From: Cyanophora paradoxa CCMP329
Lineage: Eukaryota; Plantae; Glaucophyta
Length of the DNA stretch: 56,212 bases
Assembly: GCA_004431415.1 (NCBI GenBank)
Contig: QPMI01000620.1
Location: forward strand, 1-56,212
Reading direction: 5' to 3'
The translations under genes and the position numbers were made by a program. Under the pieces are notes generated by a model, which worked only from the letters and a program-made list of their open reading frames with translations, ran no database searches and was not told where the DNA came from. How positions within the stretch are numbered: position 1 is the first letter of the stretch; every line of letters begins with the position of its first letter. This document shows positions 13,801 through 56,212 of the stretch, piece after piece.

Positions 13801-14703
13801 AGGGGTCGGCGCCCACCACGCGGCGCTCGTCCGGCGCGTCCAGCACTTCCCGGCGCGGCGCGCGGGGCCCCGCCGGCCCCGCGTACCTCCCCTCCGCCTC
13901 CCTCATCTCCCGCCTCCCGACCTTCCCGCGGGCCGATCCCGACCCTCAGGCTCCGGAGGCCGGGCCGGGAGGGGGGCCCCGCACGCCCCGGACGCCCTTC
14001 CGCCACTCCCGCAGCGCCCGCGTCGCGCCGGCCGCCCTGCTCCCAAGAGACGCCACCGCCCCGGGGGGCTCGAGCCCGGACGCCTCGCCCCCCCGCCACG
14101 CTGCCCCGATCTCCCCCCCCTGGTCGCCCTCCCCTTTCCTCGTCCTGGCGGGCCGCCGCCCCTCCGTCGCTAGCCTCGGCCAGCCCCCCTCGCCCCTTTC
14201 GCCCTTCGTCTCCAGTCCCCCTGCCCGCCCGCGGGTGCCTCCGCCCCCGCGCCCGCTCCGCCCCCGTCCGCCCGCCCACTTTCGCCGCAGTCGTTCTTCA
14301 GCTGGAAGCGGAGCGCCCGGGTGCCGATCCAGAGACCCGACAAGAGGAGACGCTCGCACCGCTGGTGGCAGCTGCGATACCTCGATCCCGAGGACGAGAC
14401 TGCGTGCGCCGCTTGTACCCTCCGCAAGTCCCGTACCCCCGCGAGCGACGTGTACCCCCCAGTTATTGGGAGGCGTCGGCTCCGAGCCTCAAGATGGGCC
14501 TCCGGCAGCTGGTTCAGTGGGCTTTTCTGCACACTCTCATCTTTCCGGTACCCTCTTCCGTCCCATGTACCGTACCCCCTCCCTTTCTAATCCATACCCC
14601 GCGCAGATTGCGAAGCTGATGGCGAACAACACGGTTACCAACAAGCTCGTGGAGCGGTGCATACCCCGCCCCACACCCGTTCGCCTTTCCGTGCCCGACT
14701 AAC

Positions 14704-14736
<33 letters not shown>

Positions 14737-16793: not shown

Positions 16794-17642
16794 TTTCAAC
16801 AGATCTAGATAGAACTGTTTATGTAGCGGCCATCCTTTCAAAATCAGTTTAATTTGCGACTCGTCGAGTCCGTTTCGGGCCTCGCGCTGCGTTTGCAGTG
16901 CTAGTGTTCTTTGCAGTCTTCGGCCCATGCGATGGCCATGGCGCCGGCCCTCACACAGTCTACTTGCAATTGGGTACCTTCTTTTGTATGTACGTCTAGA
17001 TGCATATGGCGGTCCTTATATACTGGTTCGAATTCTCAGCATCACCTGTACACTTGCTTTAATTCTCATGCGAAGAGCCTTCAATTAATTGCGCGATGCA
17101 TCTGCTTGTTGATACCGATAAGCGCCTCGAAATCTTAAGCTTCAATGTGTGCGTGTACTTGAACTCGTTGCTGTTTTTGATGCGATCCGATGCATTGGAA
17201 ATGCATGACAGTCAATCGATATCGCCGAGTCGGCGTGCTTTCGAATTCTTTCGCAGTGCCATCATGTACCGCAGTACATATACATGTACGTTAAATTATA
17301 TAAACAAATGCATGATTTATGATTAAATTGATTATAAATTACCCAGCAATCCAGAACGGGGCACAACATTTCGCGATCGCTCGCGATCGGGGGGTACCGG
17401 TCGCTCGCTCGCTCGCTCGCTCGTCGCTCGCTCAATAGTTGGCGGATGCTGGCCCCCGCGCCCCTGGCCATGGCCCGGCCCGCGGCCCCCGGGCCCCGCG
17501 CACGGGGCCCGAGGAGATAGCCCGCCCCCGCGGCGCGGCCGGCCCCGCGGCGGGTACACGTAGACACCGCAGCCGCCCTTAGGATGACGCTCTAGATCTA
17601 AATATCGATATCTATGCGTCTGAACTGCGTGGCTAGAGCCTT

Positions 17643-37404: not shown

Positions 37405-37959
37405 ATGCCGCCGAAGAAGCAGAAGGCCTCGCCGGCCGCTCCTGCGACGTCGACGGTTCCGGATGTGGCCGTGTACATTCATGTGCCCGGAATCGGTAAA
37501 AAAAGGGCGAACATCTTCCAAGTGGAGGCGACCAAGCTCGGTCCGCGCGCCCCCGCCTTCGCAGCGCGCGCGCGTCCCGGGAAGCTCCAAGTCATTCTTT
37601 ATCTCGCGCATGCAGGCTTCGCGGTGCACACGAAGCTCGAGCCGGGCACCACGCATGTCGTCCTTGGTCGCTCGCTCAACGCCTTCCTCGGCGATCTTCG
37701 ACTCAGCGAGGTTCGCGGAGCGGTCTCGAGCACTCGCGCCCGCGCCTTCGCCTGCGCGTATGCTCGCTTGCAGCTGTTCTTCGATTCGCTAGCGCGTCGC
37801 CGGGCCATGTTTTCTTCAAATGCTACCGGTATTGCAAATATTAATGACGCTTGCACTCAGGTTCCTGCCGTGCACTTCGTGCCTCCGGAGTGGATATCGG
37901 CTTGCGCGACAAAGAAAGAGCGGGTGCCGGAGGCGGACCACCCGCTAGCCAGGCCTTAC

Positions 37960-37999
<40 letters not shown>

Positions 38000-40572
38000 T
38001 CCGCCAGGCGACCCTCGCCAAGACGCCGCGGGCGGCAGCGCTAGCGGCCGCGGCCGCGGGTGCCGGCTCGAGCTCGTCGACCTCGTCGCACGCGTGCGAG
38101 CCGGGCGAGTCTAGATCTGCCGCCGCAGCGCTAGCCGCGCCGGAGACCGCCCCGGAGCCGGAGGTCGACCCGCCGCGCCCCGCGTGCTGCAAGCGGCTCC
38201 GCTACGATCTCGACTCCGATTGCGACGCGGCTCCGTCCAAGAGCGACACGGATCCAACACACGTGGTGCGAAGCAAATTTCTGTGTATGCGTACTACTGT
38301 ATGTTCTTTTTTGGCACCGATTTCGAATACTACGTCGCAGTTGCAGAGTGGAACCCAGAACTACGACCCGAGGGACTTCTCACAGGCCGAGGACCGCCGC
38401 CGCCCGCGCTTCGAGACGAACGCGAAAATGTCAGTTGTTGATCTCCGATTATTCGGTCTATTTCGATATCCCTGTCTGAACTGGAGGACAGAGCGGAGCT
38501 GCTGGAGCAGCTGGGTGATTATTGTGAGGCTCGCGGCTTCAACAAAGACATCTTCAAATCCAATGCCTTCACCCGCGCCGGCAGCAAAATTAAGTACCTC
38601 TCTTGCGAGGTGCGCTTTTATCGTCTGGGAGCTTGTGCTAAATATCCGATATCCCGTCTAATCTTTCTCTCTGATTCTGCATCGAAGCTCAGGGTGCCAT
38701 GCGAGGAAGATCTGAAAGACTTCAAGGGCGTGGGCCCAAGCACATTTGCGCTGGCCCGCCAGGACGCGGCATCCTGGCGTGAGTATCGCCTCTGAGTGAG
38801 CGCACCTTACCCGCAGGTCAACGAATATCTCGAGACAGGCAAGATGCAGAGGGTCCGCCTTTCTATGGCCGCCCTTGTCCCTGCAGACATTTCCACGTGC
38901 AATCTAGATCTATTTCCCGCCCCGCGCCCGTTCAGGTCATTGAAATGTCACGCACGGAGCCGCTCAAAACCCTCCGCCTCTTTAAGACCGTCTGGGGTAC
39001 GTAAACGGATGCGCTCGCAATCGCCGCCTGCGAACCCCTCCCGCCTTCGTCTCACTACGCCGCCGCCGCCGCCGCAGGGATCGGCCTGGAGGAGGCTAGG
39101 AAGCTGTACGGCCGGGGGTACAGGACGATCCAGGACCTCCAACTCCACGTGCGGGCCCCGATGCTGACGAATTGTCTATTCATTCTGAAGGGCGTCTGAC
39201 GTGCACGTGCGTCTCGCGGGCGCAGCGGGGCGAGCTCACGAGAGCGCAGCAGATCGGCCTCCGCCTCCGCGACGTGCGTCGTACCCCCGCCAGCTTCCCC
39301 CCCCCCACTCTCCCGCAGGACTTTCTCCAGCGGATCCCGCGCGCGGAGGCGAGCCTGTACCCCCGCCCTCGATGCCCCCTGCCCCTAACTTCGCCCCAGG
39401 TGAAGCGCGTCGAGGACAAGGTGAAAGAGGCCGCTCGGGGAATCGACCCCGGGTTCCTCGTCCAGTGCTGCGGCTCGTACCGGCGCCTCAAGGTCCGAAT
39501 CGGATTAGATTTGATCCAAATTCGATCCGAATTCGATCGCAGCCGGACTGCGGGGACTGCGATGTGCTCGTCAGCCACCCGACCCTCGTGCGCCGGGGCC
39601 CTCCGTACCCCTCTGCTCCTCGGGCTCCTAATCTCGAATTACTCTTTCGAAATCGCAGCATATGGGCGCCCTGGGGGTCCGCCGAAGCGTCGACGTCGGT
39701 TTCGTACCCCCCTGAAGGCTCAGGATCACGTACCCCCCGGCGCTTCGCAGAAAATCGTCGAGTCTCTCAAGGCGAGCGGGTTCATCACGGACACTCTGAG
39801 GTACTTCGCACGGTCATTTGCGTACCCCCAATTTTCCGCCGACCCCTGTACCCCCGCAGCTTCTCGAAGGGCCCCGACGGCCGACCCCCCAGCGCCGATG
39901 CCCCGCCCCGTGCGGTCCACCGCCCTCGAGCCCCGCCCGCCGCCGCGTCGTACCCCGTTCCCCGCCCGACTCGCGTACCCCCAGTCACGCCGCAGCGGTT
40001 CTTCGGGGCGTGCCGCCTGCCGGACGAGGCGGACCCGTCCAGAATGCTGCCCCACCGCCGCCTGGACATCATCGTCGTACCCCACGAGCAGTGGGCGTGC
40101 GCCCTGCTCTACTTGTGCGCGCTCTTCTGCGTACCCCTCCTCGTGTCCCCCCCCCCTCCCCCCGCCCCGGCGTTCGAGCTCGAGGGGTACGGCGCGGGCG
40201 CAGCACCGGCTCGGGCTTCTTCAACCGGCGCATGCGCTTCAAGGTGGGCCGGCCCTTGGCCCTCCGCACTCGTTCCCTCGCTGTGCGTGATCCGTGCATG
40301 TACATGTACCCCCCGCAGGCCCGCACCCTCGGCATGTGCCTCAGCGAAAAGACAGTCCGCTACGTCACCCGCGACCGCCACGTGCGTACCCGCAACCCTA
40401 CCCCTTTCCCCCTTCGCCCGACCCCATGGCCACCCCCTTCCCTCCCGCCTGTACCCCTCCCTCACGGCGCCGGGCGCCCTCAGATGAATATCCTGACTGA
40501 GGAGCCGCCCATCCCCGTCCGCTCCGAGGAGGTCCGCACACGTACCCCCGGCCCCCTTTCCTGTCCGCTCAG

Positions 40573-40613
<41 letters not shown>

Positions 40614-40676
40614 CAGGACGTCTTTAGGGTCCTGGGGATGGAGTACGAGGCGCCCGAGGAGCGCAACCTCGACTGA
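37405..40676 (+). CDS. POLL: DNA polymerase lambda-like (family X) with N-terminal BRCT domain (multi-exon)
   Basis: BRCT (TTHVV..VPPEWISAC), HhH FKGVGP and VWG|IG, LTRAQQIGL, DFLQRIPRAE, CGSYRR, CGDCDVL, HRRLDIIVVP..WACALLY, TGSGFFNRRMR, EEDVF..LGMEYEAPEERN. Confidence 0.92.
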
Positions 40677-41263
40677 TCTCTTAGGCCTCGAGCCTCGGAC
40701 CGGAGGTGCTCGGCGCCGCGGTTTTCTTACGTCGTGTTATAAAAATTATCCTCGAACACGCTCGCATGCATGCGCGCTCGGCAATGATGCCGGCGCTGCC
40801 GCCGCCGCCGCCGCTGATTCTGTCGATGGAGGGCCCGTACGCGTGGTACCGGTCCGGAGCGCGCGGCTCCGGCGCCGGCGCCGGCGCCGGCGGCGCGCCC
40901 AAGGATCGGAGGCCTAGGGGAGGAGCTCGAGGGGCTCGGGGGCGGGCCGTGGCCAGGGGCGGGCAGGGCGGCTGGGCGCGGCCGCGGGGGTTCTGGCTGC
41001 TCATCGTGTGCTCCCCTGGCCATGGCCATGGCGCCGGCCACGGCCTGCTGCTCGTCGAGCCGCTACCTGCCTCCTCCTAGGCTAGGCCCTCCAGGCTTGA
41101 ATTACATGTTTACCTGCCACAGTGCAGGGTGCAGCCTGGCAGGCTGCGCATGCGCTCGGAAAAAGAGTTCAAAAGACTCGGATCATGACACGTGTACATG
41201 TGAATACGTATACGCGGGACTCGTCGGAGGCTCGGCGGAGCCCGCGCCGGCCCCGCCCTAACC

Positions 41264-41338
41264 CACACATATGAATATTCATATTTTAATCCCTCGGCGT
41301 TCCGCCTCAGGATTAAAATATGAATATTCATATGTGTG
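41264..41338. repeat. Terminal hairpin: perfect 29-bp inverted repeat with 17-nt loop
   Basis: cacacatatgaatattcatattttaatcc (41264-41292) / ggattaaaatatgaatattcatatgtgtg (41310-41338); each arm contains the 16-bp palindrome atatgaatattcatat. Confidence 0.95.
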
Positions 41339-41339
41339 A

Positions 41340-41590
41340 TTCGATGTTATATCAATAAAATCGATTAATTTATTTGAATTTTCACATGAATTTTCATATT
41401 TTTAAATGCATTTTCAATTAATTTAATCGATGTTATATCGATAAACTCGATTAATCGATATTGTATCTTAATTGTAGTTAATCGGAATTATATCTATAAC
41501 TTCGATTAATCTTAATTGAATCCTAAATGAATCTAATCGGAATTATATCAATAAATTCGATTAAATCATGTTCTTTTCCGATTAAATCAA
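41340..41590. repeat. AT-rich iterated imperfect palindromes (~30-bp unit x4)
   Basis: tcgatgttatatcaataaaatcgattaat-like units at ~41341, 41428, 41482, 41538. Confidence 0.8.
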
Positions 41591-41725
41591 TTAAATATTT
41601 AACTTTGTTACCATAAGTGGTCTAAGTTGACTCACTTTTCATAAACATTTTGAACTCTTAGTCTTCTTGAATTTCTTAAGATGACTCAACTTAGTCAACT
41701 TAGTCAACTTTGTTACCATAATCAA

Positions 41726-42442
41726 TCAGGGTGGACTCACTTTTAGATCAACTTTGAAATTTCAAGCAAAATCAACTTATATTTCAAAAGTGGATCTTCT
41801 AAGTGGACTCATAATGTTCACTTTGTGATACATTTAAGTTCTAATGCTTACTGTATATGGTCAGGGTTGACTAAGTGGGGGGAGTTGACACATTTTTCAA
41901 AATCTTTTATAGAATATTCTTTGGATCTCAAAATTTCCTCTGAAATTTGAGTCAACTCAACCCACTTAGTCAACCTTAGCATTGAAATGGTCACATTTTT
42001 ATATACATTTACTCCTTTTACGATTAATATGAATCAACCATGAGTCCACTTAGTATTAAATATCAATCAATGTAAATATAAACAAGGGAATTAAGAGGAA
42101 TGCTTATTGAATATGGTCAGGGTGGACTCACTTTTTCATACAAATCGAATTCCCAAGTAAATTTGACTCTAAACTGTTAGGTGGATCTTCTAAGTGGACT
42201 CAATATGTTCACTTTGTGATACATGTTAGCTCAAATCCTTACTGTTTATGGTCAGGGTTGACTAAGTGGGGGGAGTTGACACATTTTTTGAAATCCTTTT
42301 TAGAAAACTTTAGGTCCCAAATATTTCCTGTGAAATTTGAGTCAACTCAACCCACTTAGTCAACCCTTGCATTGAATTCGTAACAAAATCCATATACTTT
42401 TACTACTTTTACGATTAATATGAGTCAACCTTGAGTCCACTT
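41726..42442. repeat. Two diverged direct repeats (period ~390 bp) built of GTTGACT/GTGGACTC motifs in both orientations
   Basis: 41726-42052 vs 42117-42442; each holds ggttgactaagtggg...cccacttagtcaacc inverted arms. Confidence 0.9.
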
Positions 42443-42718
42443 TAATATAAATATAATATAATAGGGGGAATGTTGAGTTTTACTGTAATGAAATCGAATA
42501 GTATTCGAAATCTTACACTTGTAGGTTTAGGATGCATTCATATTTTGGCTACATCATACAGTAGAATTCTATTGTAAAAAATGTCCGGAATCCGGAAAAT
42601 AATCATTGTAGAAAGCTACTGTAGTAAAAGGATATATTATATCCTTTTGTAACAGTAGCTGATCAATGTTAGTTTTAGAAAACAAAGGAATCCTTTAAAA
42701 ACTCATTATAAAAACCCA

Positions 42719-43117
42719 TCAAAACGGGAATCTATCATGTTTATGTCTCTCAGTCTTCTCAAATGTTAAGAAATTCATTGTTTTATCGATCTCATCTGCA
42801 ACTGCTTGTGTTTTATGCTGAGCTTCTTTACCACAACTGAATATATCAATTGCTAACATGCCTTCATTGGAATAACAATGAGCTGTGCAATGGCTTTCAT
42901 CTAATAGCAGAACCAATGCAAAACCAGGAGGTGATATTTTGCCATCAAATATCTCACAGTGTTTATGAACAATCCTAATGCCTTGTCTTAATACTGCTTG
43001 TTCAAGGGTTCCCATAATCCAATTACCTAGGAAGCTTACATGCTCATGTCCTGTTGCAATAGCTGATTTAGCCTTGTAATCAAGCATAACATGAAAGCCT
43101 CTGTATTTAGTCTCCAT
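42719..43117 (-). CDS. speD: Pyruvoyl-dependent S-adenosylmethionine decarboxylase proenzyme (prokaryotic SpeD/SpeH type)
   Basis: 132 aa; GFHVMLD, FDG..PPGFALVLLLDESHCTAHCY..EGMLAIDIFSCG (E|SH self-cleavage site, catalytic Cys in SCG). Confidence 0.9.
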   Translation of the reverse strand: METKYRGFHVMLDYKAKSAIATGHEHVSFLGNWIMGTLEQAVLRQGIRIVHKHCEIFDGKISPPGFALVLLLDESHCTAHCYSNEGMLAIDIFSCGKEAQHKTQAVADEIDKTMNFLTFEKTERHKHDRFPF

Positions 43118-43140
43118 TAAGAATACCTTAGAAAAATTAA

Positions 43141-43413
43141 CTAGTCAAACCTAATGCAAACATCCCTGTACTCTACTTTGATTGATGAAGTAGCCCTTTT
43201 CCTATAAGCCTGAGAATGCTTTTTGTTGCATTCCCTGCAACCTGATCCCTTCACATGATTAAAGGGATATGTTAGGATCACCTTGTTACATTGCAAACAT
43301 CTAACAGATACTTTCTCTTGAGCTTTGATGTAATGTGTCTCACTGTAATCGAATTTATCTTTACCATGAACTGTCATAGCAGCATCAATAAACTTTTTTG
43401 TTTTAGTATCCAT
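43141..43413 (-). CDS. DUF723-like zinc-binding repeat protein (single unit, no nuclease domain)
   Basis: FIDAAMTVHGKDKFDYSETHY..KVSVRC..C..P.NH.KGSGC..C pattern, as in repeats attached to viral homing endonucleases. Confidence 0.75.
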   Translation of the reverse strand: MDTKTKKFIDAAMTVHGKDKFDYSETHYIKAQEKVSVRCLQCNKVILTYPFNHVKGSGCRECNKKHSQAYRKRATSSIKVEYRDVCIRFD

Positions 43414-43435
43414 ACTCTATATATAACCAATATTC

Positions 43436-44268
43436 TTATGGAGCAGTATCCTGCCCGAAAATGGGGAAATATCGATTTGTGCCATAGTATTCAGCATAGG
43501 TATTCTGCTTTGCAATAAAATCGGTTCTCTCAGCATATAATACACACTTGTAGATACCAAACTTGGTGGCTCTCACCAGAAACTGATAGTCTTCCAAACC
43601 GAAATTGACTCCATGATAAGCAATTCCGAAATTATCATATGGGGTGATCACAACTGCAAAATTAGGAGTTCCTCCCTCTGCTTGACAAAGAGCATAAACA
43701 TCTGGTGGAATATCCACAACTACCTTGTAGTGGTCACCAATCTCAACAAGAGAGTCTACTACTGCTGTTTGTTCATTTACTACAATGGGGAATATCTTTA
43801 TAATGTATGGGGCATTCATGCTGGGGACATAGGTTCGAATTCTTGTGTTGGGATCAATGGGATTGGGTTGATCATTCACAAATAAAGGCGCTCCAACAGC
43901 CCCACCAACCCTAAGACCATCACCAATATAAGCTCCCCCCGATTTGCAGTTAATAGCTCCAGACCTAGATTCAAAAGAATAAGTAGAAAGAGGATCTCCA
44001 TAGCTATCTGGGTCTCCATAATGAGCAGAAAAGTTTGCATTTGTCACAAGTAGCTTAGTCGTCTTAACTATTCCATTATTTTTATCACATCTGAGTTCCT
44101 TTAATCTCAGCTTGTGGGTGGAACCAAATGTGTTCATTGTAGGTTGGACCTCTGTGGATTGGAGACCCTCCACATCATCAAAGGTAGCATGCTGTAAAAC
44201 ATGGTTTGCTGGGGCAGCTAATGATAGTTGAGGTGTAATAATTCGTTCAAGTGGGGTTGCTCAGCCAT
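43436..44268 (-). CDS. Fibre-like paralog A (1-nt frameshift near 44254)
   Basis: Restored N-terminus MAEQP(P)LERIITPQLSLAAPANHVLQH aligns with paralogs; KELRCDKNNGIVKTT..SGGAYIGDG. Confidence 0.7.
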
Positions 44269-44291
44269 TTTACATTAAAGGGATATATCTT

Positions 44292-45137
44292 TTATGGGGT
44301 TGGGTCATCAATTACATCTGGCTCTTGGTAAAACCCTGTTTGAGAAAGAGTATCAGGAGTAACACCTCTAAGAGCTGAGACAGCAGCTATATCTGTTCTG
44401 ATACCCATAACTGTAATTGTATATTTTCCAATATCTGTAACAAACAGATCATAGGTGAAATTGTTATTATAAACACAGAACCCTGTGCCAAAATGATCAT
44501 ATCCCTGAACACTGAAATTGTATCTGTGACCTGGCTGGTTATTGTTGGCTCTACATAAAGAAAGCATTGCAGAAGGAATGACCAGCCCTCTCATTACTCT
44601 TTTGGTTCCTTCAATCAATTCAGAGTTTTCAAGTGTGACAGTATAACCTTGGTAAAATTGAATAAGTGGCTGTTGTGCAACTGGTATATATAATCGAATT
44701 CGTTGGGGGTCTTCAACATTCTGCTCAAGAGTATCTGGGACATCATTATACGAAATTGAGGATGAGAGTTGACCTGAAACTCTGCAGCCACCACCAATAA
44801 ATGCTCCTCCTGATCTCACAGTTACAGCAGCAGTGTTTTTATCATAATCAAGGGCTTTCAGATCAACACTGTAAGCATCAGGACCTCCATTAGTAGGCTG
44901 GAAAAAGTTAGCATTTGTGACAAGAAGTCGAGTTGTTTTCACCACACCTGAATTCTTATCAGCTCTCAGCTCTTTAACTCGAATAATCGAATTTTTATCA
45001 AAGGAGTTGCCATTGGAATTGGGTCTCTCTGTGGATTCTAAACCACGAACCTCATCATTTACTTCATGCTGGCGAAAATGCATTGCAGGGGATCCAAGGG
45101 AATATATAGGCAGTTGAACTCGATTATATTCACCCAT
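44292..45137 (-). CDS. Fibre-like paralog B
   Basis: KELRADKNSGVVKTT..SGGAFIGGG; C-terminal head similar to paralog A (IP..LC..F.V..YD.FG..G.Y....RTD). Confidence 0.75.
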   Translation of the reverse strand: MGEYNRVQLPIYSLGSPAMHFRQHEVNDEVRGLESTERPNSNGNSFDKNSIIRVKELRADKNSGVVKTTRLLVTNANFFQPTNGGPDAYSVDLKALDYDKNTAAVTVRSGGAFIGGGCRVSGQLSSSISYNDVPDTLEQNVEDPQRIRLYIPVAQQPLIQFYQGYTVTLENSELIEGTKRVMRGLVIPSAMLSLCRANNNQPGHRYNFSVQGYDHFGTGFCVYNNNFTYDLFVTDIGKYTITVMGIRTDIAAVSALRGVTPDTLSQTGFYQEPDVIDDPTP

Positions 45138-45172
45138 TGCTTCTTTTACTAAGAAGGAAAGAAAAATAATGT

Positions 45173-45439
45173 TCATTGTTCTTCTGTGACAATGTTATAC
45201 TCGATTGCTTTTTTCACAGTCCCCCTTTGGAATGCCTGTAAAACAATAGCTTCCTTTGAGGTTGGTATTTGAACTCCTCCCGAAATGCAAGACTGAATTT
45301 CTTTCTGAACAATCTCATCAATTGCAATTCTTGCTCTGTTGTGGGCTGCATTGTCAATCCAATTCTGAACAGAAGCAGAGCAATATTCCATTCCCAGTTT
45401 TTCAGTATCTGAGAGGACTACTTGGTAGATATTCGACAT
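45173..45439 (-). CDS. Small helical protein of the type found after C1q fibre genes in aquatic tailed phages (putative fibre chaperone/partner)
   Basis: 88 aa; VLSDTEKLGMEY..SVQNWIDNAAHNRARIAIDEI..QAF..G.VK; family recalled from memory, not searched. Confidence 0.6.
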   Translation of the reverse strand: MSNIYQVVLSDTEKLGMEYCSASVQNWIDNAAHNRARIAIDEIVQKEIQSCISGGVQIPTSKEAIVLQAFQRGTVKKAIEYNIVTEEQ

Positions 45440-45461
45440 TCCTATTTTATGGTGAGAAAAT

Positions 45462-46490
45462 TTATGTGATGCTGATAAGCTCACCTGCAAATGCTGTTTT
45501 AGAAGAATAAACCCCATTTGTATTTGTAACAAGTGTTACATACTCATTAGCAGCAATATAGAGAATACAATTTAGCGAAATGGTTTTGTATCCAGCAGTG
45601 TTTGAGGCAATTACATTTATTGCAACACCACTTGGGTTTGCATCATTTACTTGAAGAGTAAGCTCTATGGGTAGTGATGAGGCTTGTGAGTAGGTAACTG
45701 CTGAAAAACGGTAATGCCCTGAAACAGGAGCAGTAAATCTCCCATTAGCAACTGCAAAATGATTTGTAGGATGATTTAAATGAACGATTCCCCAATTTAT
45801 CAAAGCAGTGGCGCTTGTTGCTGTATGATTATAGTTTAGCTGAACACAGAATCTTGGTTGGGACTGATATTTAAAATAGTTCTGTGTGTTAATTGTCAGA
45901 CAGTTCGATTCAAGCAATGCCACAGTATTGCTATTGCGTTTAAAAAGCAGATTTGTGGCAGATCCAGTATCTATTTCAGGAGTAATCACTTTTGTTAATG
46001 CTTGGATTATCTGTTGGGACTGATTGGGTATCGAAATACCAGCATTTGCTGTCACCAACCCTGTAAATGTGCTTGTTCCTGTTATGTTTACTTGATTGGC
46101 TGCAAGATTTCCATCAATCCTTGCCCCATCTCCAATGTAAGCTCCTCCACTCTTGACAACAAGAGCTGCATTATTGCTTGTGTTGTCAAAATTTATTAGT
46201 TTGGGTGTGGTGAACCCTCCCACATCATCATAAATTGCTGAATCTGAAACAATCGATCCTGATTGGACTTGGTTTTTATTTGATACTATGAGACCTGTGG
46301 TTCTCACCTTCCCATTATTGCGATCACATCTTATTTCTTTGCATCTAATGACAGAGTTCTGAGAGAATGAATCAGCTCCTGTTGTCTCTGTGCAAATAAA
46401 ACCTGGTGTAGCATCTGTGACAGTGTGATTAAGTTGATGTATTTTTGGTGCTGCATAACAGAAAACAGGTACTGCTATCTGAGTAGTCAT
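45462..46490 (-). CDS. Fibre-like paralog C with C-terminal gC1q/TNF-like head
   Basis: KEIRCDRNNGKVRTT..ALVVKSGGAYIGDG; QPRF..INWG.VHLN..F..NGRFTAPVSGHYRFS..FAGELI. Confidence 0.82.
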   Translation of the reverse strand: MTTQIAVPVFCYAAPKIHQLNHTVTDATPGFICTETTGADSFSQNSVIRCKEIRCDRNNGKVRTTGLIVSNKNQVQSGSIVSDSAIYDDVGGFTTPKLINFDNTSNNAALVVKSGGAYIGDGARIDGNLAANQVNITGTSTFTGLVTANAGISIPNQSQQIIQALTKVITPEIDTGSATNLLFKRNSNTVALLESNCLTINTQNYFKYQSQPRFCVQLNYNHTATSATALINWGIVHLNHPTNHFAVANGRFTAPVSGHYRFSAVTYSQASSLPIELTLQVNDANPSGVAINVIASNTAGYKTISLNCILYIAANEYVTLVTNTNGVYSSKTAFAGELISIT

Positions 46491-46512
46491 TCTTTACATT
46501 AGACAGACAATA

Positions 46513-47568
46513 TTATGTTAAACTCACAAGCATCCCACCAAAAAGTAAACGGGAGGGATATGTTGAGTAAGGATAATAAAGTTGTATAGAGTCATTTTGG
46601 GAAAGATTAATTAAAATGTCAAGTCCATAGCAAGTGACTCCACCTTTTTCTTGGTTATACACTTGCAATCCGGTATCTGCTCCATTTTTGTATATCATTA
46701 GATAAAATATTGTCGATGAAGTTCCAATTGAGAAGAAGAACCTGTAACATCCAGCAATTGGTGCTGTAAAAGTGCCTGTTGTGGGGTCAAAGCAATTTCC
46801 CTGATCTACCAACTCTGTTCCATAAGAAGTTATTGGACCAGATCCAGAAGGTATTGTGAAAGTTAAAGCTCCATTTGGCGATTGCTTTGCAGCAAAAAAT
46901 CTTGGGCAACCATTTCTTTTCAAATACTTTTCGTTTGATAGTGTCAGAGTTTCGTAATGAGTGGGTGTCTGTAAATTGGAAGGTATCTTTTCAAGAGAGA
47001 AAATCGTAATACCATTTCGTTTATAGTTCGCATTGGTATCTGATCCATTATCTACCTCAGGTGCATTAATTCTTGTAGTAGCTGTGAGAGTTCCATATTG
47101 GATATTTCCTGAGAGACCACCATTCAAAGACATCAATCCTGTGAATGTACTTATCCCACCCACATTTAATTGATTAGCTGTGACAGTTCCTGCTACATTT
47201 GCTCCATCACCAATGTAGGCTCCTCCACTTTTAACCACAAGTGCAGAATTATTACTTGTGTTATTGAAAGTAACTATCTGTGCTGTGGTAAATCCACCTA
47301 CATTATCATATACTGCTGAATCCGGGACTACCTGACCTGCTTGAACCTGATTCTTATTCGAGATAATAATCCCTGTGGTTCTTATCTTGCCTCCATTTCG
47401 ATCACATCGAATTTCTTTGACTCTGAGAATATTGTTCTCTGTGAAAGAGGTATTGCTTGAAGTTTCAGTGCAAATATACCCAGGGGTTGAATCAACTACT
47501 TCATGAGAGGTGCTATGGAGTGATTTGGCTGCAAGTTCATAGTTTGGGATTTCTAATAGAGAGGTCAT
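46513..47568 (-). CDS. Fibre-like paralog D with C-terminal gC1q/TNF-like head
   Basis: KEIRCDRNGGKIRTT..ALVVKSGGAYIGDG; PRFFA..DQGNCFDPTTGTFTAPIAGCYRFFFS..LSQNDSI..FGGMLV. Confidence 0.82.
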   Translation of the reverse strand: MTSLLEIPNYELAAKSLHSTSHEVVDSTPGYICTETSSNTSFTENNILRVKEIRCDRNGGKIRTTGIIISNKNQVQAGQVVPDSAVYDNVGGFTTAQIVTFNNTSNNSALVVKSGGAYIGDGANVAGTVTANQLNVGGISTFTGLMSLNGGLSGNIQYGTLTATTRINAPEVDNGSDTNANYKRNGITIFSLEKIPSNLQTPTHYETLTLSNEKYLKRNGCPRFFAAKQSPNGALTFTIPSGSGPITSYGTELVDQGNCFDPTTGTFTAPIAGCYRFFFSIGTSSTIFYLMIYKNGADTGLQVYNQEKGGVTCYGLDILINLSQNDSIQLYYPYSTYPSRLLFGGMLVSLT

Positions 47569-47587
47569 CTTTATAATAAAGAAATAG

Positions 47588-50500
47588 TTAAATTGCGACA
47601 GCAATGTAATGAATTGTAACTGGAAATCCAGGTCTGTCAAAAGAACTTAATGGAACTATTTCAAGCTCACATGTGAAATAGCTACTGTAAACTTGTTTAA
47701 GCCTAACATACATGCGGTAGTAGTAGGCTGTCTCATTGTGTTGTATACCGGTTGTTACAATAGGAGGGTTAGCAAAGCTGCTGTTGAAATTAATAGTGAG
47801 GTTAAACCTATGGTCAGGGTTTGCCCAAAGATAAGGAGTAGTGTAAACATACGTTCCTGCTTGAATTTTCCCATTAAAATATGCATTGAGTTGACTGGAA
47901 AGATCTGCTTCTGTGATACATCTACTAATAGTGGAGCTATCTGTGGGGTTCATAGCATAGAAATTCCTTGCATATGCATTTCCTCTGACCAGTAGGGTTT
48001 GATCATAATAATTCTGCGAATTGTGGAAGAACCATGTTTCATCAAACATAGGTCCTGCTGGCTCTACAATCTGACCTGTTCCTACATACATTGTGCTGTT
48101 TGCTCTGATAGTGGTTGCTGTGAATGGATCCAGAGAAGGTCGATCTGTAATATCTCCCCAAAGGTGTGTGTGTGCAAAATCTGTAATTTGAGATTTAGTG
48201 TGAGTATGTGCAAAGTCTGTTATCTCACCTTTGGTGTGAGTGTGTGCGAAATCTGATATCTCACTCTTTACATGGGTATGGGCAAAATCTGTAATCTCAC
48301 TCTTAAGATGATTGTGTGCAAAATCTGTTATCTGTGACTTGGTGTGAGTGTGAGCAAAATCTGTTATCTCAGATTTAAAATGAGTGTGAGCGAAATTAGT
48401 AATATCTGCTCTGGTGTGGAAGTGGGCAAAATCTGTTATCTGGGATTTGGTGTGAGTGTGTGCGAAATCTGTGATCTCTGCCTTTGTGTGAGTGTGTGAT
48501 CTATTATTAAGATCAAGGAAGCTACCTGAATAAGCAACAGGGTGCAGGTTTGCAGCTGTAGGTTTATTCAGGAGATCATTATAATCTCCTGTGAAGGAGA
48601 TTGTTTTTAGTTCACCCCTTCCAACATAATCAGAAGGGAGATCAATCTTGATAGGCATTATAGCAGGATCAACTGGAATCTCATATTCACCTCCTGGGTG
48701 AACCACAGGAAAAGTTTGATTGCTTTCAGTGTGGACAAAGAAGTTGCATGCTGTTACTGTTCCATCAATAATCCCACCTGTGAGAGGGAGGTAATTGCCT
48801 GTGACTCCTATACCTGCAATGACTGTATTAAGTTCTGTTTCATCTATGTAGTTCTGGGCTTGAAGGTAATCCTCTGTCACCACTCTTGATATGGTCTCAT
48901 TGTGAATATTCTTTGCTGCTGCCCTTTGATTAATTTCTAAAACTCCCTCACCCACTCCACCATTATAATTCGTTTTATCCATGCCATCTCACATCTCTTG
49001 TAGTCATCTCGATTTCCTAGAACAGCATCAGGTAACAGTCTCTCTCTGCTAAATATTAATTTTGGTCTTGAACCATCCAAATCACTCACATCAGTAACAT
49101 TAATTTGGATTGCTGCATCTTTGTCATCATAGTTGACTGGATCAGATGGTAGTGATAGTAAACCTCCTGTCATTGGGATGTCATCAGCATAGTAACTGGT
49201 TAAATAGATACCTGGTTTGGTGTCCAATGCTCCAAAGTTTCCACCTGCTGCAATCATCTGCATTCTTGTAGGGGTCTGATGTATAATTCACCTTCCATAG
49301 TGGTCCCTGCATCAATACCCTTTCGATTGACATAATAATCATTTAGTTGTAGCCTCTCAGGTATGGTATTACTCTGGTAAAGACTCACACCATGTGGGAA
49401 GTCTGTTAACAGATTGCCTGCAGATGCAAATTTGGGTTGCTGGTCAATTTCACCCCAAGGGTGTCTGTGATTACAGTTGGTGATCTGGGTATAATCATGA
49501 GTGTGAGTATCAGGAGGGAAGGTGATAGGTTTGTCTACAATATTTGACCAGGCATGTGTGTGATCATCTGGGGAAAAGTCAATGGTCTGTCCACAATATT
49601 CGACCAGGCATGGGTGTGATCAAAATCTATAATTTGGTCTTGGTGTGGGTATGGTTTTGATCCACCCATCCACAACATTTGAAGTTGGATGATGTGGAAG
49701 GTTTGCATTAGATGTAACAGTAAGATAATCAACAGTTATATTACTTGCATAAAGGTTACTTGTGTAAAGGTTACTGGTGACAGTTAGGTCCCTGTGATTG
49801 TTCCACCAGTTTTAAGAAGATACTTTGATAATTCGACTGCAAGTTCATTTTTAGTTACATAATTTGCGAGCATAGCAAGGGTGACTATATTCACAAGAAC
49901 AACAGCAGTAAGGTAATCCTCTGTGACCACTCTCGAAATGCTCTCATTGTGTATGTTTTTTGCAGCCATCCTCTGATTGGCTTCCAGAACCCCACCATAA
50001 TCTGTTTTAATCCATGCAAGCTCTGCCCTCCCATAATTATCATTTGCAGTTCCCACTATGGGAATGTAGGAATACTTATCTCGACTGAAAACTATCATTG
50101 GTCTTGAGCCATCTAAGCTGCTTACATCTGCTACATGAACCTGTATAGCAGAGTTGTAATTTTGGTAGGTTGCTGGGTCTGTTGGGACTCTGAATGTATC
50201 TGTGGGAATGTCAGCCTCCATGTAGCTTGACACAAAGATATTTGGTATGGTCGCTCCTGGTTCAGGTGGTGGATTATAAGAGCCTGGTAATGTCCTAATA
50301 TGAAGTGGTCCTCTCATAGCTGAATTAGCAAGTGTCCCATTCACATGAACATAGTGTTCATTCAAAAAGATCCTTTCAGGGACATTACAAGTCTGGTAAA
50401 GAGAAACCCCCAAGTTATCAAGAGGCTCTACCTTTGCGAATTCTGGTTGGTCGTTGATCTCATCCCAAGTATGTTCATGTTTGCTTGGTGGGAACTCAGT

Positions 50501-51916
50501 TGGAATCCCATCAATTTCACCCCAATCATGCCTGTGATCCTCTGGTGGATACTTCTGAGGTTTGCCTAAGATCTCATCCCAATCATGATTGTGATCCTCT
50601 GGGGGATACTTTGCAGGTTTATTATTAATTTGTTCATAATCAGGAAAGAACTCCCAGATCTCAGGTCGAAATCCATCTGGTAACAATTCCTCATGGGGTT
50701 CATAAGGTTGCTCATAATCAACAGCTGGTGGATCATGCCCATCTGGCAAATACTCCTCATCAGGTTCATAGTTCTGCTCATACTCAAACTCTTGGGGATC
50801 TAAGCCATCTGGTAGTATCTCCTCCTCATTGGGGTCAAACTGATCATATTCATATTCTTGTGGGTCAAAACCATCTGGTAAATATTCTTCCTCATCTGGA
50901 ACGAATTGATATTCATCAAGCTCTAATATATCGACTTCAGGAGGTAAATACTGCTCATCTATTTGCTTTCTGGGTTCAATTATAGGTTTATTGCGAACTT
51001 GCTCCCAACTAACAATATGCTGCCCAAAGGCTACATCTTCAGTTGCTGTGTATTCTCTTCCAGGCTGCTTCTTTGGTGTTAAATCGGGTGGTCCATTGGG
51101 AAATGGAATAGGGAATGGGACTGTTGGTCCATTGGGACCATAATGCTCGATTATTTCCCTTAGAGTTTTCTCACTCACAAGTTTCTCCCCATTTGCATAC
51201 ACATTGCTGCCATGGATATTTCGCCATTGCCTGGTTCGAATTCCAAGGTCTTTCACATTGCTATACAAAGGCAAAAGGTGCCTATCCATTTCGACTAAAT
51301 CAGGGTGTAAATGGATTGCTACTGGTTGACTGGGGCTACTGTTGATTGTAATTGATGGCTTTTTTTGGTGGACATCTTTTGGAGTAAAAAACCCAAAAGG
51401 CTCATTCCTCGCAAAGTCATATGTAATATCCTTGGGGTATACATCATTTGTGTAGGAGACCTGATTTGTGTTGGCAATGGGACCCACTTGCAATACTTGG
51501 GGGACCTCAGCTTTTGCAGTGCTGCCCTCATTGTAAATTCGCAAAGCTGTGTTCTGTTTGCCCTGCTCATCTTGAACATTGAAAACCAGACGACCACTGT
51601 CAAACCTGGAAGGTATATCTGGGTGAGTGCCACTGGTTTTTAGTTTCCTAGGTCTCCTTCTTGTTGCTTTGATCTCTGCCACTTGGTTTGCTTTCACATT
51701 ACCCAAACTAAAAGCAACACTGACATCCTCTTTATCTGGATCAGTTTGATTCACAGATAAAGCATGCTCCCTCGATTGAGTCTTTGATGAATTATCGGAA
51801 CTGTGGTCAATCGAAACTGAACCCTTTACTTTAATATTATCAAAGTTCACATGCTTGGTGCTGCTTGCATTATCATCTTGAATGGTTTCTAGATTTGGTG
51901 GGTAATTGAAGCTCAT
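47588..51916 (-). CDS. Long mosaic fibre (~1440 aa when several 1-nt frameshifts are repaired): acidic repeats, HxH repeats, duplicated ~200-aa module, H-type-lectin-like tip
   Basis: ORFs 49784-51916, ~49260-49790, 48937-49263 and 47588-48982 join up; module GVSLYQ..PER..LDGSRP..FSR..AWIK..NQR.AAKNIHNE.ISRVVTEDYL..TGG.I.G occurs twice; C-terminal FNSSFANPPIV..IHYIAV. Confidence 0.75.
48137..48496 (-). repeat. 10 x 36-bp coding repeat HTHTKS(E/Q)ITDFA (phage tail-repeat-like HxH motif)
   Basis: Counted directly in ORF 47588-48982. Confidence 0.92.
50650..50960 (-). repeat. ~5 x 22-aa acidic coding repeat EEYLPDG.DP.E.EY
   Basis: Visible in ORF 49784-51916. Confidence 0.85.
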
Positions 51917-51959
51917 GGCTTTTACTATATGGATTTATAAAATTCCTGATAAGTAAAAG

Positions 51960-53510
51960 ATGCCTCTCAAGGTCGTTTAAGTCTTTCTGGCGGGGTGCAA
52001 GGGGCATTATCATAACCAGGCTGCTAAAAGAAATCGAAAATCGAACTGGCAGGAGAATAATCGATCTTGTGATCTTGTGAGTGGAACTTCCACTGGTGGG
52101 ATCATTGCAATTGGTTTGAATATAAGGCATCCTGATAGACCAGGTGAACCTAAACTGACAGCAAACGATTTACACAATATTTACCTAACTCAACTGCCCT
52201 TGATTTTCGCAAATCTCGAATATAATCGAAAATGCCCTTTTAATACAAAGTATGATGTGGGACCCTTGGAGACTGCAATCAATTCAGTTACTGGTGAATC
52301 ACTAATACAGGATTCCCTAAAGGACATTGTGATTACATCCTTTGATACTCAGAATATGAAACCAATATTTATCACAAATGACAACAACTACAACTTTATG
52401 CCTTGTAAGATTGCTGCTAGGGCTACTTCTGCTGCTCCTACATATTTCTCTCCTGTAAGCATTGTTGATTTCAATCGGGGAGTATATGTCTGTCTCATTG
52501 ATGGTGCCATTTCGGGAAACAATAATCCCAGTGTGTGTGGTTACAGCCATGCAAAGAAGATTTACAGTGATGATGATGATATAATAGTAATAAGCATCTC
52601 TTGTGGAGAGGTGGACCCACATTTAGAGTCTGATTATGTGGGTTATGCTTATGAGACTGTAAACAGCTGGGGCATTCTCTCATGGATTGCCTCAACAGAT
52701 GGAAGCCCATTGATTAACATGCTCATGGCTGCAAGTGAGCTTTCTGCCCTTGATAAGATGGAGGAGTTGTTACCCTACAACTATGATCAGGATTATGGGA
52801 GATACTATAGGCTATCAGTCCCACTTCCAAATCATATAGTAAGCTCCCTGGATGACACTTCTAAAATCCCAGACATGCTTGCATTCACTGAAACATACAT
52901 TGCAGCAAACAATGATATGATTAATAAGCTTTGCAGCCTACTAGTAGCAAACTATGAACTAAAGAACCCTACAAAGGCTTACATTTCATCCACTCTCACT
53001 ACATCACCTCCTTTGGATGCCAATTGGTATCAGCTTGCAGATGATGCCTTTACTGCCTCATCCTCTGTGACAGGTAAAGAGCCTTTCATGGCTAGACCTT
53101 CAGCATTTGGCTGGGAAGCTGGAGCCTATGCTCCTGAGCAGATATGGGAAACCCCCACTGAATACCTTCAAGTTGCTTTCCCATACACTTTTGAACTCTC
53201 CTCTGTGATTGCCTATGGCTCAGGGGACACCAATGCTTTTATTAAGACTTTCAATGTGGCAACATCCACTGATGGGATCAACTGGTCTTTTATTCGATCA
53301 GATGGGCAAAACAAAATGTATGTCTGTGAGAACATTAACAATGCTCACAACTCAGGTGATGTGGCTTTATTGAGTGGATTCCCTCTCAGCATCAAGGATG
53401 CTTTTTACATAGGTTTTTCTCTCAGAATTAAATATATTCGCATTTATCCCCTTGTGTATGTGAATGCTCCCACAATGAGAGTTGATTTCACAGGTGCCTT
53501 TATTCGATAA
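51960..53510 (+). CDS. Patatin-like phospholipase fused to a C-terminal discoidin (F5/8 type C) domain; three 1-nt frameshifts in the first 110 nt
   Basis: Restored LSLSGGGARG; GTSTG (Ser), ARATSAAPTYF, LIDGA (Asp); FTASSS..W..EYLQV..TS.DG.NW..YIRIYP..MRVD. Confidence 0.88.
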
Positions 53511-54416
53511 ACTCCAACTGAAAAGAATTATCGATTCCATTCATATCAATCAGTTCACCAAAGTAATCTTTAAACTCAACTGTGATTCCCTTATCACCAG
53601 GTTCTGTCATTTATCTGAATGAATTCTGCATGCTCACCACTATGGTAAACATAGCCACCTATATCCTTACTCAATTGCAATCTAAGGATTGCCCCTGTTA
53701 TGTGGTTGCGATTTCGGAACTATATTGTGTCTGCTGGCAAAGGGGCAAGCTCTTTAATGTGCATGTATAGATACTGCTCAGCATTCATATCAGACATCTT
53801 TCTGCTGTCAAAATAATATTGCAAGGCTTAGATGAGAGTCTGGGTCCTGAAAAGGTGTTCCCATGCTGGGTGATCAGGTGTAATAGGTTTGCCATCATAC
53901 TTTAACAGGTTCTCAGGTCGATAGGGTGATCCACCAACAGGAGGAGTGCTATAATACCCATTGGTGTATTCAGTAGAACTTACACCAAAAGCTTCCCTAT
54001 TCTCTGGTTGCTTGCAATAAACGAAACTCATGGTTACTGTAAAACTCCACTTTATAGGTAGTTGGGTTATAGAATATCTTGAACTCAAAAGCTACTGTTT
54101 TGCCTGCAATGGTTTGGAAGCTTGAATAATTCAGCCCATAATTATAAGGGTGTGTTACCCCAAAATGACCCTGATTGATGTAGCCACTGGGAAGGGATAC
54201 ACTTGTTGTGTGATCACTTGGTTATATGAACCATCTTGGTAATTAAACTGAACTGTTAGATGATCAGTTCCCAACTGTTATAGATGCTGTTGAATCTCTG
54301 CATATAGAACCTGCATTCCTTGGTCTCTCTACTGGAGTTGTGAGGGTGACCCTGTAAGAGTTTTCATTTTGTCCTTGGCTTCTATCCCTGCTATCAATAT
54401 TAACGAGCCGGTTCAT
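53500..54416 (-). CDS. Minor capsid protein (penton, single jelly roll) 1, frameshifted
   Basis: N-terminal MNRLVNIDSRDR..NSYRVTLTTP..VLYAEI.NSIY; internal QYLYMHIKEL; C-terminal ITVEFKDYFGELIDMNGIDNSFQLEF. Confidence 0.78.
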
Positions 54417-54445
54417 TTTAATATATAAATATAGATAAAAGAAGA
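54417..54445. promoter_or_regulatory. 29-bp AT-rich bidirectional promoter between the two penton genes
   Basis: tttaatatataaatatagataaaagaaga between divergent ATGs; similar 43-bp spacer at 51917-51959. Confidence 0.6.
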
Positions 54446-55441
54446 ATGCCTGTGGATTACATCGAGGTTAGCTCATTTAATACAATCTCTGGTGATGGTC
54501 CCACATCAAGCTTTGTGGCTAGACTCCCCAGTACTTATGAGAATGTGAGGGCTGTGAGACTGTCTCAGCCGAATTTTATAACAGCATCCCTATGGTGAGT
54601 GGTGAAACCAAAGCAGGAGATATAACAGTTGACAACACTTTTAGTATTTATTATTCTGAAGAGCTTGCGGGAGCTGGAATTACAGGAATTCCAACAACTC
54701 GCCCAGCTGCTGATTTTGAACAATGGAAACAATTCATTGTAAATCGCGAAACCCCCATTCAAAACCACCAACAGCTGGTGAATGTTATAAATGAAAAGTT
54801 TAATGACAGAATCCTAAACCATCTGTTCGCTGCAAATGGGATGAGTCACTGAAACGATTATATTCCATCCGAAAAAAAGTTTTACCTGGCTTTCTCACTT
54901 GCTGTAGACCCAAACCTGAAAACAATCCAAAAGCTGTTAAGCTCAGCTCGACTTTTGGTCTTGATCCTGGAAGATATGGTAATTCCCCAATCAATCACAG
55001 GTCTATGATGCTCTCACTGATGGAATCTTTACTGAACTCGAGTAAACGTATTATATCTTCATTTGAGCCTGAAATGACAGGACAGTGTTTTGTTTGTGAG
55101 AGTAAAGGAGCTGGGTGATCTGGTGCAATGTGGGATGGTCTCCTGACTGGTTACTTCCATAAATAGTGGTCCCTGACAAAGATATGGTGAGCATGTAGTT
55201 TACAATTCGACAGAGGCTCATCCACTTTACAAATACTATAATAAGAAGGTTGATTATCCACTTTCTCGGTGATATTGTGAATGCTGTTAATGAACCAATT
55301 GATTTCGAGGGTCAACCTGTTCATCTTACCTTTGAAATTCGCTATGGTGATGAGCCAGCTGGGGACCCAGTTTATGAATACTATAAGATGAGAATGTCGC
55401 AGCTTCACCCTTCCTATCCAGTTATTACAAACTTCGCATAA
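54446..55441 (+). CDS. Minor capsid protein (penton) 2, frameshifted
   Basis: SSFVARLPSTYENVRAVRL..AEFYNSI; C-terminal LIIHF..NEPIDFEGQPVHLTFEI. Confidence 0.72.
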
Positions 55442-55493
55442 ATTAAGGATCATTGGTAGATTTTTTATGTTGCAGTATAATAAAGAGAATATA

Positions 55494-56212
55494 ATGATAT
55501 CACTTCCACTCTTCAAAGACTTTCGCTGAAAGAAGCCCTAACAACCCCAGAGGAGGCGAAAGCCTTTTTCCTGGATAACTCCCTTATGCTTGGTCTCGAA
55601 TCCAAGTCTAAGCCAGTTCTAGTTGTTGTGAATCCTAGTAATACTTTCACAAATAATGTAGGAAATCGCATTTCCTTCAAGCTACCTCGCTACAATTTCT
55701 GTGGAAAAACTCGAACTTGCTTTCGACCTTCCAGCCATCACTTTTGCTGGTGATACTGATCTAGTTCGCAATGGATACACTCGCCCAGTTGGTGCTTTAG
55801 TTCAGCGACTTGAAATTACCTATGGATCTTACACCTACCATATTCCATCTGATTTCCTTGCTCATTTCCCCCTGGTCTATTATTCGGAGGATCAACTAGC
55901 TAAAAAGAAACGATCAATGGGCATGGTTCATGGCATCCCTGCTCATGGAACCAACCGACTTGGTGGCTCATTTTTCGTTGAAATTCCAGTGCCTTGGCTA
56001 AAATCACTACCTTCCCCTTGGTGCTTTATCTGGTGAAATGGTTGTTACTGTTTGGTTTAAGGATGTTGGAAAAGGCTATGTTGAAACATCCTATGGTGGT
56101 CGTGGTCTTACTGTTGCAGCAGCTGATGTAGATTATTCAAAAGATGATGGTCTTGGAACTGCCCCTGCTGAAACTGTTCTGGCAAAATGTTGGTCAAAAC
56201 ATCACAGACTTT
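55494..56212 (+). CDS. Double-jelly-roll major capsid protein, 5' part (frameshifted, truncated by window end)
   Basis: GNRISFKLPRYNF..KLELAFDLPAI..VGALVQRLEITYG..FFVEIPVPW..GEMVVTVWF; directly downstream of the penton genes. Confidence 0.7.

Follow-up and report, generated by a model that had tools for sequence, protein, structure and literature searches.

The AT-rich island at positions 41264..56212 of the Cyanophora paradoxa contig QPMI01000620.1 (the window, i.e. the whole stretch of 56,212 nucleotides that was analyzed) has a visible length of 14,949 bp and is the left part of a longer element. We conclude, with a probability of roughly 0.85, that a Polinton-like virus (PLV) is present in many integrated copies and that the island is the left end of one of them; the virus belongs to a glaucophyte group that is catalogued and unnamed. 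An earlier note, made from the letters of the window, had described an endogenous jelly-roll virus of a possibly undescribed lineage. Its core holds: the island is an algal virus of the double-jelly-roll kind that has integrated, its capsid is divergent and its attachment genes are numerous. The endogenous virus is real, but its family is mostly on record, and we do not uphold the claim that the system is undescribed.

The GC content is 67% over positions 1-41263 and then drops to about 39% from 41264 to the end of the window (30-42% per gene block), so the AT-rich island of the note is borne out by the measured step at 41264. There are 588 bp between the stop codon of the host Pol X gene (40676), whose pieces are lambda-type, and the start of the island, in agreement with the ~590 bp past a host Pol lambda gene given previously. 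Of 24 sequencing runs, 14 from DNA under a single organism label contain 67-72% of the words of 38500-48400, and 7 of the 24 were compared contig by contig using Logan contigs. In three of three DNA runs, contigs starting at 40864 follow the window with zero mismatches to 41292 (X1 and X4) or 41290 (X14), are unbranched over 41263/41264 and have host single-copy depth (94.8, 44.8 and 59.3 in X1, X4 and X14, respectively). They enter the element by 29 (X1), 29 (X4) and 27 (X14) letters, which is under the 31-letter bridging rule, and this shortness is what speaks for the junction being an assembly chimera, the AT-rich part then being a free virus or a contaminant. However, the crossing contigs are identical to the window, unbranched and at host single-copy depth in each of these runs, and they stop inside the repeated terminal hairpin, as expected at the end of a multi-copy element. 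A chimera is therefore scarcely credible, and we take the junction to be real.

The depth on contigs of the fibre-like gene F2 and of the H-lectin fibre head is 32-43 times that of two single-copy host contigs in three of three DNA runs, a ratio that GC bias may inflate. In addition, flanks other than the window's are joined to the same element end in runs X15 and X17. Single-copy junction contigs, high internal depth and alternative flanks at the same end together identify the island as an integrated member of a multi-copy family, the depth and the flanks also giving the answer on copy count. Such an integrated, multi-copy island of low GC content is a feature of PLVs.

The capsid gene at the right end of the window links the element to a published group. 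A full HMMER search of 1.84 billion representative proteins with the largest capsid piece returned four proteins, two of which are credible relatives. The other two, P0002 and P0004, were rejected as chance matches driven by repeats. The best relative, P0001, is a 456-aa C. paradoxa protein, and the three frames of the capsid gene align to its residues 2-218 with 52-67% identity (tblastn, E 2e-67). The second, P0003, is a 431-aa protein from a Logan assembly and is 40% identical to P0001; by eye it is close to other Cyanophora capsids in Table S2 of Bellas 2023 (PMC10120064). The same table gives a 456-aa protein as a capsid, with an HHpred match of 98.47% to an iridovirus capsid. This protein carries the same contig tag as P0001 and is the same by eye over the part shown, and another capsid of that study is closer still to the window (54 of 63 N-terminal residues identical by eye). 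In its Tables S2 and S4, C. paradoxa has 366 capsid hits in two clusters, placed under 'Iterative HMM searches' without a group name. Thus, the major capsid protein proposed in the note is present, being homologous to the published P0001, and is broken into three frames. Homology to a published, HHpred-confirmed capsid, along with features in the Atlas, argues for a predicted double-jelly-roll capsid of the PLV kind, and its family sits within the Cyanophora cluster of the glaucophyte PLV group. Capsid relative and gene inventory point to C. paradoxa as the likely host. P0001 has no Pfam match, the capsid profile matched no PDB sequence, and no relative of the capsid or the pentons turned up in word-based protein searches.

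The inventory of phospholipase, discoidin, S-adenosylmethionine decarboxylase (AdoMetDC) and phage-tail repeats (PTR) with an H-lectin likewise matches the glaucophyte PLV group. According to Table S6 of Bulzu 2025 (PMC12220804), the 156 glaucophyte elements include 66 with AdoMetDC, 89 with lipases, 139 with an A32 ATPase and 97 with a minor capsid protein (own profile), as well as 85 with rve, none with a tyrosine recombinase, 49 with pPolB, 40 with D5_N and 34 with a PIF1-type helicase. In that work, one C. paradoxa PLV encodes a protein of the form PTR-PTR-H-lectin. Discoidin domains occur there in PLVs of rhizarians and glaucophytes (n=11), either singly, in pairs or as a fusion with patatin, and are proposed to act in entry or endosomal escape. 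Furthermore, it reports that most PLVs encode long phage-like fibre proteins, which contradicts the statement of the note that PLVs usually carry few fibres. Terminal palindromes are described in Halocafeteria virophages and in one PLV subtype, where they tend to go with rve and non-pPolB replicases (bioRxiv 10.64898/2026.07.28.741278). With the capsid family in Bellas 2023, the entry genes and AdoMetDC in Bulzu 2025 and the palindromes in the 2026 preprint, each named oddity of the element has a precedent, three of them in the host lineage. Consequently, of the distinct, possibly undescribed lineage there remains the capsid clade, which is unnamed; the capsid family and the gene set are in print (PMC10120064, PMC12220804). 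The standard Polinton-type capsid profile matched 2 of the 156 elements and missed 154 (PMC12220804).

Membership among the virophages (Maveriviricetes) is unlikely, as the virophage capsid or protease is matched in 0 of the 156 glaucophyte elements (Bulzu 2025 Table S6, PMC12220804). Free-living relatives were found neither in IMG/VR (with the capsid piece, the patatin, P0001, A4 and the anchor alignment) nor in JGI metagenome scans, the fibre anchor domains had no relative in either, and the exact terminal motif had none in IMG/VR; these are exact-short-word scans and constitute weak evidence of absence.

A different placement would make the element part of a separate family-level lineage of small viruses related to the nucleocytoplasmic large DNA viruses (NCLDVs), either mriyavirus-like or dwarf NCLDVs, and not Polinton-like. 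Mriyaviricetes and dwarf Nucleocytoviricota are recognized by an HUH replication protein, VLTF genes and the position of the capsid in a tree; the visible part of the element contains none of these genes, and the capsid relatives are too few to build a tree. In the Atlas, the neighbours of P0001 are indeed Capsid_NCLDV clusters, but NCLDV capsids are commonly the nearest annotated matches of PLV capsids, which weighs against this placement. The HHpred best matches of the Cyanophora capsids are capsids of an iridovirus, an ascovirus and a Pyramimonas virus (Bellas 2023, PMC10120064), and among the 156 elements the Polinton capsid profile is found in only 2, an NCLDV-type penton profile in 15 and the listed maturation protease in 0 (PMC12220804). 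On the other hand, the same elements match a PLV-type ATPase in 107 cases, rve in 85 and pPolB in 49 (PMC12220804). We therefore consider an NCLDV-related lineage improbable and retain the PLV assignment.

It should be noted that several points weigh against that assignment, or against our view of this copy. The window ends before the packaging ATPase, the integrase, the replicase, the right end of the element and the target-site duplication. The AlphaFold model of P0001 is unusable, with a predicted local distance difference test (pLDDT) score of 36, and its Foldseek search gave no match at E<=0.001, double-jelly-roll capsids ranking 1 and 3. P0001 is placed at 0.98 beside NCLDV-type capsid clusters in the Atlas, with a recognition value below the reliable level. 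The two penton-like genes gave no match in Pfam, PHROGs, PDB or the homologue search, and none to each other in blastp. The 14 DNA runs, all under a single organism label, do not count as independent genomes. Rare variants are lost from Logan contigs, which leaves room for real breaks in this copy. Finally, ongoing CpG decay between copies was considered and rejected: 7 of the 38 listed transitions fall at CpG, which equals the 18% background, and recent methylation damage is not visible.

The features of the insertion site and of the island, from left to right, are as follows.

37405..40676, plus strand: spliced lambda-type Pol X gene of the host, which borders the insertion on its left; the Pfam matches (HHH_8, DNA_pol_lambd_f, palm, thumb) fall on different exons and, being single exons, all stay under the curated cut-off.
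41264..41338, strand not applicable: terminal palindrome of 75 nt that opens with a CA microrepeat and marks where the element starts on the left (41264 or 41265); other flanks meet the same end in runs X15 and X17.
41264..42700, strand not applicable: non-coding terminal region with 55-bp AT-rich repeats and a ~390-bp duplication with internal hairpins.
42719..43117, minus strand: AdoMetDC-like protein, 132 aa, ESH cleavage motif intact; Pfam PF02675, E 2.8e-11 (above cut-off), and PDB alignment.
43141..43413, minus strand: 90-aa fragment resembling the N-terminal part of phage HNH endonucleases; phrog_4605, 681 and 559, E 3e-9 to 2e-8.
43436..44137, minus strand: F1, 233 aa, with an anchor family 1 N-terminus and a C-terminal domain without match; paralogue of F2 and the C1q proteins.
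44292..45134, minus strand: F2, ~280 aa, anchor family 1; paralogue of F1 (34% over 217 aa).
45173..45439, minus strand: 88-aa gene of the kind that accompanies C1q fibres in phages; 42-49% identity to its counterparts in DC33 and S-SRM01.
45462..46490, minus strand: C1q-a, 342 aa, anchor family 1 and C1q head; Pfam PF00386, E 5.1e-7.
46513..47568, minus strand: C1q-b, 351 aa, anchor family 1 and C1q head; Pfam PF00386, E 2.2e-9.
47588..49811, minus strand: H-lectin fibre with anchor family 2, 12-aa phage-tail repeats (8 x 36 bp) and an H-type lectin head; PF12789 at cut-off, PF09458 just below.
49784..51916, minus strand: 710-aa acidic-repeat protein; PHROG tail-fibre repeat matches, best E 2.6e-8.
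51962..53510, plus strand: patatin-like phospholipase fused to discoidin (F5/8); GTSTG and DGA motifs intact, N-terminus frameshifted.
53500..54419, minus strand: penton-like gene B, several breaks, identity unconfirmed.
54480..55441, plus strand: penton-like gene A, several breaks, just before the capsid gene, identity unconfirmed.
55470..56212, plus strand: major capsid protein, N-terminal half in three frames, running off the window end; tblastn to P0001 as given above.

Several gene assignments of the note are confirmed by this map: AdoMetDC passes its Pfam cut-off, and the patatin (E 6.4e-13) and F5/8 discoidin (E 1.8e-6) domains lie in the same frame, as a fusion requires. DUF723 was not returned; what the 90-aa open reading frame (ORF) resembles instead is the N-terminal part of HNH-endonuclease families from phages, and no nuclease domain was detected in it. 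The labels penton A and penton B come from end motifs that we take to be those of virophage and PLV minor capsid proteins; no search matched either gene, and the two pentons of the note are not substantiated.

The fibre-like block (43436-51916) measures 8,481 bp and makes up 56.7% of the visible island. This agrees with the ~8.5 kb noted before, and the block contains six long genes and one small gene instead of five fibre-like genes, with F1 and F2 lacking a domain match. The related claim, that over half of the sequence is spent on receptor binding, is true of the visible part and is inflated by the window cutting the element: the share would be at most 42% if the element is at least 20 kb long. 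Two N-terminal domains recur within the block, namely: anchor family 1, common to F1, F2, C1q-a and C1q-b, and anchor family 2, common to the H-lectin fibre and the 710-aa protein, where the paralogous parts are the C-terminal half of the 710-aa protein and the N-terminal half of the fibre. These shared domains presumably act as anchors. F1 and F2 have no recognized head and no Pfam or PHROG match, and the AlphaFold model of F1 is unusable (pLDDT 33).

The C1q heads and the 88-aa gene correspond to a unit known from phages. Two freshwater phages (3 records) have genes with 42-49% identity to that of the 88-aa protein, and there they come after genes that end in C1q. In IMG/VR, it matched 243 stretches; among the 80 best of these, 76 have an upstream ORF of at least 100 codons, and 47 of the ORFs are distinct. 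C1q ends 42 of the 47, while three are phage tail-assembly chaperones and two have no match; downstream, C1q occurs in only 2 of 35 ORFs. Sixteen other queries, taken from the element or from its capsid relatives, have no relative at any of the best 80 loci. Their contigs are unclassified, and the neighbouring genes include tail collar and S74 domains. The phage copies of the 88-aa family have no Pfam match, the 114-aa frame of the window has two sub-cut-off Pfam matches, and the family has no match in PDB and no real one in PHROGs (1 of 48, weak). In a tree over 78 columns, the 88-aa protein falls among viral-contig sequences in no supported group, and thus no donor can be named.

In marine phages, C1q proteins are known to vary and are regarded as candidates for receptor binding (Mizuno et al. 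2014, PMC3909814). As judged from the sequences, the C1q heads and their small partner gene were likely acquired from aquatic tailed phages, the direction from phage to algal virus being indicated by the many phage-side relatives. The order of the genes leads us to guess that the 88-aa protein is an assembly factor of C1q fibres, and its family, common in aquatic viral contigs, is a candidate for a new phage fibre-assembly family. There is no mention of C1q in the main text or both supplements of Bulzu 2025 (PMC12220804), Bellas 2023 not having been searched for it, and a literature search found no paper that pairs PLVs with C1q. The C1q fibre pair with the 88-aa gene, not found in print for PLVs, and the probable variability of the fibre cassette are modest new details. 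Limnohabitans phage DC33 is filed under Inoviridae, though it is 39 kb long and has an endolysin and tail-fibre-like genes.

In aquatic tailed phages such as S-SRM01 and DC33, C1q is also C-terminal, varies among relatives and is directly followed by the same small gene; Synechococcus phage S-SRM01 even has the same order of C1q gene, C1q gene and small gene. Unlike these tailed-phage modules, the element puts the C1q heads on its own virus-specific N-terminal anchor, in a tail-less eukaryotic virus. With the published C. paradoxa PLVs it has in common the capsid family, the AT-rich multi-copy insertion, the patatin-discoidin, the phage-tail repeats with an H-lectin head, AdoMetDC, an HNH-type gene and the lack of a visible protease, as far as described in PMC10120064 and PMC12220804. 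In contrast to Gezel-14T, a Phaeocystis PLV that depends on a giant virus, the Cyanophora element has no known helper.

Exact-match contigs on the C1q genes have 4.6-5.3 times the single-copy depth, and the summed depth on these genes is 10-20 times lower than on the patatin or capsid genes. With C1q genes at about fivefold and their neighbours at 32-43-fold, the fibre cassettes likely differ between copies, so that a two-gene phage receptor-binding unit, its order kept, resides inside a eukaryotic virus in a minority of copies. Joints between paralogues are in register, e.g. from residue 101 of C1q-a to residue 101 of C1q-b and from the H-lectin fibre to the 710-aa protein, and the family 1 anchor motif is joined to the H-lectin shaft in three of three DNA runs (15 of 36 and 15 of 41 joints listed; short sides of 23-55 letters where given). 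These joints suggest fibre reshuffling, but diverged paralogues that align in pieces could also explain them. More speculatively, the integrated copies may form a library of interchangeable fibres, in which phage-derived heads (C1q with its partner, H-lectin) on the virus's own anchors are reshuffled by recombination between copies, within a glaucophyte-specific lineage meriting its own family; we regard this as rather unlikely. If cassettes do swap among hundreds of integrated copies, the evolution of PLV host recognition could be studied in one genome of a cultured, sequenced alga.

In four runs, which are guessed to be RNA, contigs lie on 41265-44600 and 52720-53680 and on little else, with the same variants of other copies each time. 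Their contigs contain AdoMetDC, F1 and the end of the patatin-discoidin gene, and one extends 807 letters into a foreign flank. They may stem from transcription of a host gene that reads through into one or two (possibly deleted) copies, and are not used as evidence of expression.

Several genes of this copy are broken; the H-lectin fibre, for instance, is split over four reading frames in this assembly, its pieces being collinear with the 710-aa protein. Among the indels relative to sister copies, 11 of the 12 listed (of 67) lie past 52000, and frameshift-type assembly artefacts have been described (Bellas 2023, PMC10120064). The breaks in the capsid, penton-like, patatin and H-lectin genes might instead be real, making this copy, though not the family, a dead and decaying provirus. 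At least a dozen indels relative to sister copies and the apparent truncation of the small HNH-like ORF fit such decay. The breaks, however, cluster toward the end of the window, six left-hand genes are intact, exact-match contigs cover the C1q genes at about fivefold, and at three indel sites the window's form occurs in no contig at 90% likeness in any of three runs. A dead copy is hence possible without being probable, and most of the frameshifts at the right are fairly likely to be assembly errors.

CpG is depleted in the genes of the island, with an observed/expected ratio of 0.14-0.45 per gene block vs. 1.13 for the host, and across codon boundaries it reaches 0-0.27 of expectation in all eight intact ORFs. 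In C. paradoxa, 32% of CpG is methylated, on repeats and viral genes (PMC12344493). The lack of CpG enrichment among the differences between copies makes the CpG loss look old and lineage-wide. The 55-bp repeats (41340-41570) are CpG-rich, at 1.65 of expectation in 41264-41763, vs. the CpG-poor genes, and may be protein-binding sites under selection.

The hairpin terminus proposed in the note is supported by the palindrome itself and by a shuffle test: the 75-nt hairpin folds with -31 kcal/mol (z -14.5), and 0 of 200 shuffles are equally stable. The region 41264..42700 is likely a terminal inverted repeat, with its matching right end beyond the window, which contains one end only, the end that is joined to other flanks elsewhere. 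A terminal hairpin is not mentioned in the main texts of Bellas 2023 or Bulzu 2025 (PMC10120064, PMC12220804). In the virophages and PLV subtype 4 of Halocafeteria seosinensis, a palindrome also lies at the very end of the terminal repeat, where it is proposed to prime replication; the host differs, and the illustrated palindrome is 52 nt long vs. 75 nt in the Cyanophora element.

The life cycle might then proceed as follows. An rve integrase, encoded beyond the window, would have inserted the element, as rve is found in 85 of 156 glaucophyte elements and tyrosine recombinase in 0. The host likely silences it by CpG methylation. Upon reactivation, the element would be excised and then replicated, for which hairpin priming with a primase-helicase appears slightly likelier than protein priming because, in Halocafeteria, palindrome-ended elements tend to carry rve and replicases other than pPolB. 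The A32 ATPase would package the DNA into the double-jelly-roll capsid. Trimeric fibres, predicted to be modular, with two virus-specific N-terminal anchor families carrying different heads, would bind cell-surface glycans, and the discoidin-targeted phospholipase may breach the endosomal membrane.

Some minor observations concern the insertion site and the rest of the window. Positions 41254-41263, directly before the insertion point, hold one telomere-like unit (CCCTAA then CC), a single unit that may be due to chance; these bases would contain the left copy of the target site. A hairpin with 23-bp arms lies 3' of AdoMetDC (42614-42660), and the RNA-like runs show 20 other letters in place of 42629-42703. 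At the left of the window, 52-3900 is a retroelement-like region with long ORFs and a CCHC zinc-knuckle gag-like frame at 1746-2222 (minus strand). It is followed by a host gene at 10600-16800, with two adenylate/guanylate cyclase-like motifs by eye, and by a serine carboxypeptidase-like gene at ~19500-22200.

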